A stretch of 9,341 nt of DNA from a virus (taxonomy: Duplodnaviria; Heunggongvirae; Uroviricota; Caudoviricetes), in the IMG/VR virus record IMGVR_UViG_2913147268_000001, positions 1 to 9,341 of that record, one strand, 5' to 3'. The position numbers and the translations under genes are program-made. Each line of letters begins with the position of its first letter. The first letter of the stretch is position 1. Positions 4,423-5,545 of this stretch are shown one piece after another. Below the pieces are notes generated by a model. The model was not told where the DNA came from. It searched no databases and saw only the letters and a program-made list of their open reading frames with translations.

Positions 4423-4706
4423 ACACGGCAGCGGAAGCCATCCGGGCGCTGTCGTTACAGGTGCCGGGCTTTCGCCGTCAGATGAACGAAGGCTGGTACC
4501 AGATACGTATTGCCGGTTATGACACGGCACCGGAGGCGGTGTACGCCCGTCTTCACGAACAGCTGGGTGAGGGAACGGTCATCCATATTGTGCCGCGACT
4601 GGCCGGGGCCGGAAAGGGTGGACTGCAGATTGTGCTGGGGGCGGCAGCCATCGTGGGCTCTTTCTTCACTGCCGGAGAAGGGGTTGTATTTGTAGGTCAT
4701 GGTTAA
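4320..4706 (+). pseudogene. I: Tail assembly protein I, N-terminal ~117 codons with unrelated 9-aa tail
   Basis: ATG 4320 overlaps the K 3' end as in lambda. MATTNAFCLASPPLARICLHGDLQRFGRRLSLYVNTAAEAIRAL...IVLGAAAIVGSFFTAG matches gpI, then diverges (EGVVFVGHG) into a stop at 4704-4706. The C-terminal ~100 aa of gpI are absent. Confidence 0.8.
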
Positions 4707-4832
4707 ATCTCCGTATGGTTCATACGGAATAGCCACGTCGTAAAAAATACGCAGAGTCCCTGAAGTGACCTCCGGCAGGACACTGTCTCAGGCACTCTGT
4801 GATAACCCGAACGGTCGTCTCCGGACTGACGA

Positions 4833-4860
4833 TTGAATTCCCGGCGTTGTTTTTTTTAAT
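4833..4860 (+). promoter_or_regulatory. Putative sigma70-like promoter
   Basis: TTGAAT (4833-4838), 16-nt spacer, TTTAAT (4855-4860); sits about 40 nt upstream of the RBS and GTG of ORF 4903-5181. Pattern match only. Confidence 0.3.
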
Positions 4861-4902
4861 GTAAAAAACCGGTTACGGATAAGGCGTGGCGAGGGAGCTA
4901 TC

Positions 4903-5181
4903 GTGATACGCAAAAAGAAGTGCAGGGACTGTGGTAACGCAATTACTCATAATACGGGATCACTGGCCGGGATGATTAAACAGGCGTGGTGCAGTGCCCT
5001 GGGAGTGGATGTCGGGTGCCATGCCACGCTGGTGCATTTTCCGGCCTGGCCGGCGGTGTGGCTGGAACGCGATGATGACACTGGCTTTCAGCAGGTGCTG
5101 GAACGTGCTGACTATCTGGCGAAGGAACATACCAAAGCTCACTGCACCGGTGAGCGCAATTTTGGCTGTAGCCGGAGTTGA
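4903..5181 (+). CDS. Hypothetical small protein (92 aa) with N-terminal CxxC motif, in unassigned segment
   Basis: GTG start preceded by GGGAG (4893-4897) with 5-nt spacer. Translation MIRKKKCRDCGNAITHNTGSL...; no family recognised. Sits in a segment whose origin I cannot assign. Confidence 0.3.
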   Translation: MIRKKKCRDCGNAITHNTGSLAGMIKQAWCSALGVDVGCHATLVHFPAWPAVWLERDDDTGFQQVLERADYLAKEHTKAHCTGERNFGCSRS

Positions 5182-5545
5182 GCACGACTGGCGCGCCAAT
5201 ACCCGGCAAACCAAAAGTATGGGTTGTTGTCTGGCGGCAACGATGTATCCACTCGCCCACTGACTGTTTTTTACGTCAGTGTTCCATTGTGTGACAACCA
5301 CAGTGCTGTAACAGCAACCAGCCTGCTTTACCCAAACTCCAGTCCAGATTTTAACTGAACCGCCATTCACACCCTGACCACGCTGCCCGTACCGGGACGG
5401 CTGTTGCCTGCGTGTCGTCTGGCGGCTGAGGAATATGACTATGTACGCAAAATCCTTTATCGCTCTTGATGGCAACGGACGTCTGACGGGCGCCCGTACT
5501 GCACAGGCCGCACCTTATGCTCACTACACCTGCCACTTGTGTGGC

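Follow-up and report, generated by a model that had tools for sequence, protein, structure and literature searches.

The YagK/YfjJ proteins (PF11726, a family formerly called Inovirus_Gp2 and annotated as 'inovirus Gp2 family protein' in RefSeq) include YfjJ and YagK of Escherichia coli K-12. To our knowledge, no function has been established for this family, and a PDB sequence search found no solved structure for it. The 189-residue member WP_000221530.1 shares 36% identity over its full length with K-12 YfjJ, which is encoded in the cryptic prophage CP4-57. In the annotated islands of strains Nissle 1917 and 2/0, the native order comprises the gene of the 65-residue protein WP_001547002.1, the divergently oriented YagK/YfjJ gene encoding WP_000221530.1, the gene of the 133-residue protein WP_000270962.1, a gene for a second zinc-ribbon protein and the insertion sequence (IS) IS66, which lies about 1 kb downstream. 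The surroundings of the island carry the CP4-57/CP4-44 gene set, namely Ag43, a YeeP-like GTPase, DUF932, antirestriction, RadC/JAB and DUF987. Here we compared this module with a segment, previously left unassigned, of the IMG/VR virus record IMGVR_UViG_2913147268_000001, of which positions 1 to 9,341 were analysed as one stretch of 9,341 nucleotides (the window). The segment, located at 4676–5558, consists of two rearranged fragments of this common and already annotated CP4-57-type E. coli island module, and its 92-codon open reading frame (ORF) at 4903–5181 is a chimera in which parts of two annotated genes are joined in frame.

Megablast searches and base-by-base extension against the reference loci revealed that no base of 4676–5558 differs from annotated E. 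coli island DNA (100% identity), and placed the true limits of the segment at 4675/4676 on the left and at 5558/5559 on the right. An earlier note on this DNA, made from the letters alone, had recognised no homology here, had set the borders at 4672 and 5545 and had missed a breakpoint inside the segment at 4955, where one base (C) is common to both pieces. The first piece is inverted relative to the second, and the native sequence between them, about 318 bp comprising the greater part of the first two-thirds of the YagK/YfjJ gene (11683–12000 of the strain 2/0 locus L003), is absent. In contrast, the module is colinear in Nissle 1917, in strain 2/0 and in an O111 contig. Positions 4955–5545 were found by megablast with 100% identity in 3,765 of 5,426 complete E. 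coli genomes, annotated as 'inovirus Gp2 family protein' and 'putative zinc ribbon protein'. The query 4669–4955 matched the opposite strand of the same island directly upstream, with at least 80% of it held in the native arrangement by 3,392 genomes. Overall, island DNA of this type occurs in about 3,500–3,800 of these genomes. Several copies of the island segment are usual, with a median of 4 places per genome. At least 80% of the segment in one contiguous piece was present in none of the genomes (0 of 5,426), and the gene order of the window was not found in any complete E. coli genome searched.

The 92-codon ORF, whose presence at 4903–5181 agrees with the ORF list, starts with GTG and encodes a protein with the N-terminus MIRKKKCRDCGN. 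BLASTP assigned residues 1–18 (MIRKKKCRDCGNAITHNT) to the N-terminus of WP_001547002.1 with 18/18 identities, and residues 19–92 to residues 116–189 of WP_000221530.1 with 74/74 identities, in the native frame and up to the native stop codon. The ORF owes its existence solely to the in-frame join, at 4955, of the beginning of the small zinc-ribbon gene and the YagK/YfjJ tail. The CxxC motif that had been noticed in the ORF represents the first knuckle of the zinc ribbon of WP_001547002.1. Pfam matched PF11726 on the ORF product only at profile positions 92–170 of 170 (E = 1.9e-18), compared with positions 1–170 for native WP_000221530.1 (E = 9e-48). The product keeps one of the two zinc-ribbon cysteine pairs. 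It has neither the transmembrane helix nor the N-terminal half of the YagK/YfjJ domain, in which the HYH motif lies. As half a zinc ribbon is combined with half a PF11726 domain, the 92-residue protein probably has no function. None of the five chimeric or native proteins matched a family among the PADLOC defence profiles, PHROGs returned families of unknown function only, and neither the PDB sequence search nor NCBIfam gave anything useful for native or chimeric proteins.

In the window, the 5′ island fragment is inverted and the 3′ fragment comes directly after it, with about 318 bp missing from the YagK/YfjJ gene. Through this inversion, the last 74 YagK/YfjJ codons are read in frame behind the native ribosome-binding site, the upstream intergenic region and the first 18 codons of the small zinc-ribbon gene, and the 92-codon ORF results. 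Similar junctions yield a fusion of the DUF7828 gene with IS4 on the right and, on the minus strand, an ORF running from the YagK/YfjJ start into antisense gpI sequence. The features concerned are listed in Table 1.

Table 1. Features in and around the segment, with positions in the window; L002, L003 (E. coli strain 2/0) and L006 are reference loci.
Feature	Positions	Strand	Correspondence or basis
Lambdoid prophage tail piece, left neighbour	3175–4675	+	L002 8001–9501
Minus-strand chimera: YagK/YfjJ start ATG at 4700 (MTYKYNPF), across 4675/4676 into antisense tail-assembly (gpI) sequence	4455–4700	-	
Island piece 1: YagK/YfjJ-family gene codons 1–8, divergent intergenic region of ~200 bp, small zinc-ribbon gene codons 1–18	4676–4955	-	Exact reverse complement of L003 11403–11682 (BLAST and exact extension)
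Hairpin/palindrome with 8-bp stem, just upstream of the YagK/YfjJ start codon	4710–4728	-	Native copy L003 11633–11651
Native Shine-Dalgarno motif (GGGAG) of the small zinc-ribbon gene	4893–4897	+	L003 11461–11465, opposite strand, within the exact-match piece
Chimeric 92-codon ORF	4903–5181	+	BLASTP, Pfam, native translations
Island piece 2: last 227 nt of the YagK/YfjJ gene (4955–5181), native spacer (5182–5440), first 39 codons of the DUF7828 gene (5441–5558)	4955–5558	+	100% identical to L003 12001–12604
Hairpin with 7-bp stem and no U-tract, 77 nt after the stop codon of the YagK/YfjJ gene	5258–5281	+	Native copy L003 12304–12327
DUF7828::IS4 chimera: DUF7828 codons 1–39 continuing in frame across 5558/5559 into an internal part of the IS4 transposase N-terminal domain	5441–5788	+	
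Internal IS4 fragment of 205 nt, within insG	5559–5763	+	L006 3435–3639; 100% identical to natural IS4 copies
Second internal IS4 fragment, opposite orientation	5762–6023		L006 4022 down to 3761

The probability that a truly novel gene is hidden in the segment, whether as the 92-codon ORF or in a different frame (for instance, a 171-codon antisense ORF at 4960–5475), is in our judgement close to nil. Such ORFs are present in the sequence, and the 171-residue antisense product had no match in PHROGs or PADLOC, Pfam not having been run on it. Against this stands that annotated genes and native spacers account for all of 4676–5558 and that two known proteins explain 100% of the 92-residue product. 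The antisense ORF runs opposite to the true reading frame of the YagK/YfjJ gene and is unannotated in RefSeq, and Rfam covariance models found no match at E ≤ 1 within 4400–5800. The segment contains nothing new, and its island genes are already known and widely distributed. The suggestion that a novel gene might reside here was overturned by the homology search, which returned fragments of the YagK/YfjJ gene, the DUF7828 gene and the gene of the 65-residue zinc-ribbon protein, an outcome that the earlier note itself had named as a refutation; the other option, to which the note gave equal weight, an out-of-context fragment, was the correct one, in the form of rearranged pieces of known genes.

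The native gene of WP_001547002.1 is located at L003 11261–11458 and encodes a protein in which a CxxC...CxxC zinc ribbon precedes a hydrophobic helix; the first 18 codons of this gene correspond to 4903–4956 of the window. In RefSeq, its start is placed one codon upstream, at ATC. DNA with the 5′ end of this gene and its upstream region occurs in about 3,400 of the 5,426 E. coli genomes. The protein belongs to no Pfam or NCBIfam family, and its PHROG hits were weak and of unknown function.

The regulatory signals described for the segment were traced to the same source: both hairpins, the ribosome-binding site and the region between the genes all belong to the native island. The GGGAG motif is present where a ribosome-binding site had been proposed, 5 nt before the GTG at 4903. 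Both hairpins fold better than shuffled sequences. The first (−9.9 kcal/mol, z = −4.2 against shuffles and −5.0 on the native strand) overlaps with its 3′ arm the GGAG Shine-Dalgarno sequence of the YagK/YfjJ gene, and the palindrome could serve this uncharacterised family of genes as an operator or as a hairpin controlling translation. The second (−10.1 kcal/mol, z = −4.0) was not called as a terminator. A proposed −35/−10 pair at 4833–4860 fared differently: its letters are present, TTGAAT at 4833–4838 being followed by TTTAAT or TAATGT, but a sigma-70 consensus scan of 4600–5600 returned 0 sites compared with 0.7 expected by chance.

The two other fusions show the same construction as the 92-codon ORF. 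In the ORF list, the minus-strand ORF extends over 4455–4736, so that MTYKYNPF appears from residue 13. The DUF7828::IS4 ORF is listed from an ATG at 5435, two codons before the ATG at 5441, and ends just past a further breakpoint at 5763; on its product, Pfam found DUF7828 profile positions 1–45 of 87 followed by Nterm_IS4 positions 2–61 of 95. A 37-codon leader fused to IS4 had been noticed at this place. The in-frame ORF from 5435 exists as described, but the leader is the genuine DUF7828 N-terminus of 39 codons from 5441. For the products of four junction-spanning ORFs, an exact look-up in the protein index returned no record.

Searches with the junctions themselves were likewise negative. 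Megablast with the segment, with 4300–6600 and with the whole window gave no junction-spanning record among complete E. coli genomes, plasmids and phages. Searched as exact patterns, the junction strings at 4955 and 5558/5559 had no match in GTDB representative genomes or in JGI metagenomes; for the 4955 string, IMG/VR gave no match either. A phage record, OR844780, that seemed to share the 4955 breakpoint was rejected as a precedent: it is colinear with the native island (positions 2–902 of the record correspond to L003 11400–12295 with 93.5% identity), and the breakpoints appeared to coincide because the homology of the window begins there. This record (OR844780.1, 'Escherichia phage ECO111 5-P', 4,468 bp, marked UNVERIFIED) is colinear with the YagK/YfjJ region of the chromosomal island and has IS66-like sequence; it looks like host island DNA rather than a phage genome. 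Noisy or error-ridden sequence was also dismissed as an explanation, the pieces being 100% identical to natural copies.

Taken together, the matches show that the segment represents two fragments of a known island module and that the ORF is a junction chimera; the account as a whole, in which the joins most likely arose in assembly or construction of the sequence, is highly probable. Several observations weigh against this assignment. Both plus-strand junctions of the finding are in frame, whereas chance alone would give this in about 1 of 9 cases. As the small gene retains its native upstream region and ribosome-binding site undamaged, the chimera could be transcribed and translated, provided that the DNA is real. 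One strain might indeed carry the junctions as real DNA, and Shigella chromosomes lay outside the annotated collections searched. A rival proposal is that the rearrangement is real and that the 92-codon ORF is an expressed fusion which, by means of the upstream region and ribosome-binding site of the small zinc-ribbon gene, provides a shortened C-terminal domain of YagK/YfjJ type that has some activity, perhaps of a dominant-negative or regulatory kind. The start codon and GGGAG motif preserved within the first piece, the in-frame join and the exact natural sequence of the pieces agree with this proposal. We nevertheless regard it as unlikely, as the fusion is absent from the 5,426 E. coli genomes, plasmids, phages, GTDB representatives, JGI metagenomes and the protein index, as only half of the zinc ribbon and half of the PF11726 domain are left in it, and as at least a dozen comparable non-native joins surround it, two of them producing fusions that are evident nonsense.

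The flanks of the segment are of a similar nature. The left neighbour carries the end of the minor tail protein L gene and a C40-peptidase K-like gene, followed by the initial 257 nt of a tail assembly gpI-like gene, which is cut at 4675. On the right, sequences of IS4, IS1 and IS66 follow immediately and, given the IS66 element of native islands, the breakpoints might be read as mobile-element scars, with IS4 inserted into the DUF7828 gene and an inversion mediated by an IS or an invertase. This is very hard to sustain. The IS4 sequence at 5559 begins inside insG and continues into an inverted internal IS4 piece and then into three internal IS1 pieces. Neither an IS end nor a terminal inverted repeat nor a target duplication was detected at 4675/4676, 4955 and 5558/5559, and no inverted repeats flank the inverted piece 4676–4955. 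The junctions of the segment, in common with a dozen or more elsewhere in the window, connect internal pieces of multicopy elements and overlap by 0–1 nt. Since the IS pieces are internal, the joins are not products of transposition; nor are they products of site-specific recombination. Most likely, they are chimeric joins among repeat families which arose during assembly or sequence construction, while scars of one-off illegitimate recombination in one strain are less likely.

Local BLAST of the whole window against reference loci resolved it into roughly 20 pieces of 32–1,703 nt in mixed orientation and with 74–100% identity. They derive from multicopy DNA of E. coli of the B2/ST131 type (ST, sequence type) and comprise the lambdoid genes J, lom, L, K and I and tail-fibre genes from at least three prophage paralogues, the CP4-type island, IS4, IS1, the YeeU/DUF987 region and IS66/ISEc23, the last in both orientations. 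All pieces belong to multicopy families (positions 5540–7170 have a median of 27 places per genome), and the overlaps at the junctions across the window amount to only 0–5 nt in the local mapping. One can speculate that this patchwork is real in one strain and arose in one burst, when multicopy elements were joined by illegitimate events or by template switching independent of homology, as a bacterial counterpart of chromoanasynthesis; the fusion would then be an expressed new gene. We consider this quite improbable.

Further irregularities were observed elsewhere in the window. Positions 6023–6513 consist of three overlapping internal IS1 pieces (L006 2604–2737, 2501–2659 and, inverted, 2946–2746) with no IS1 ends, and these give a perfect 56-nt direct repeat at 6023–6078 and 6260–6315. 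A plus-strand lom piece ends at 2682, exactly at the site of ISEc12 insertion in ST131 genomes (L002 14089); the 56 nt before this site (2627–2682) are present twice as a perfect inverted repeat, and the inverted pieces at 7161–7622 restore an uninterrupted lom across the site. A perfect 51-nt tandem duplication at 2903–3004 is located in a tail-fibre-like, Ser/Ala-rich coding piece with about 82% identity to an ST131 tail-fibre gene. Finally, 6514–6778 and 8092–8356 form an inverted repeat of 265 nt with 95% complementarity, in which the same part of gpJ stems from two prophage paralogues, each copy being about 87–88% identical to the ST131 J gene.

The result is a clean negative, because the sole candidate for a novel gene in the window is fully explained by known and widespread island genes. 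The origin of the joins was only inferred, yet this does not affect the verdict on the ORF. The 9.3-kb window should be flagged as a patchwork of repeat-family fragments, and ORFs or regulatory-looking signals therein should not be taken as genes without validation of the junctions at the read level.

A comparison with the known families and elements summarises the position of this locus. The IS4 sequence on the right has no element terminus at 5558/5559, where the junction falls inside insG (L006 3435; coding sequence 3392–4738); an intact DDE transposase is lacking, and the NCBIfam IS4 profile reached a score of 31.7 bits compared with a cut-off of 115. WP_000270962.1, the DUF7828/Zn_ribbon_11 'putative zinc ribbon protein', has its first 39 residues encoded exactly by 5441–5558 after the native upstream spacer; whereas the native protein has both domains, the version in the window stops at DUF7828 profile position 45, lacks the C-terminal Zn_ribbon_11 and is fused to the IS4 fragment. 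With WP_001547002.1, a zinc-ribbon protein with a transmembrane segment, the ORF at 4903–5181 shares the identical ribosome-binding site, start and first 18 residues, but the second cysteine pair (CPYC) and the C-terminal hydrophobic helix were lost at the 4955 junction. From the YagK/YfjJ family, the ORF descends at the level of a fragment, with 74 of 74 residues and 100% of the DNA identical, but it does not match the full YagK_YfjJ_C domain of about 170 positions. In place of the N-terminal 115 residues of WP_000221530.1, it has 18 unrelated ones, and the conserved HUH-like HYH motif, found at residues 94–96 of that protein (KKHYHLML, compared with KRHYHLIL in YfjJ), is lost with them. The ORF fails full-domain membership in each family and is, fragment by fragment, a descendant of known family members.
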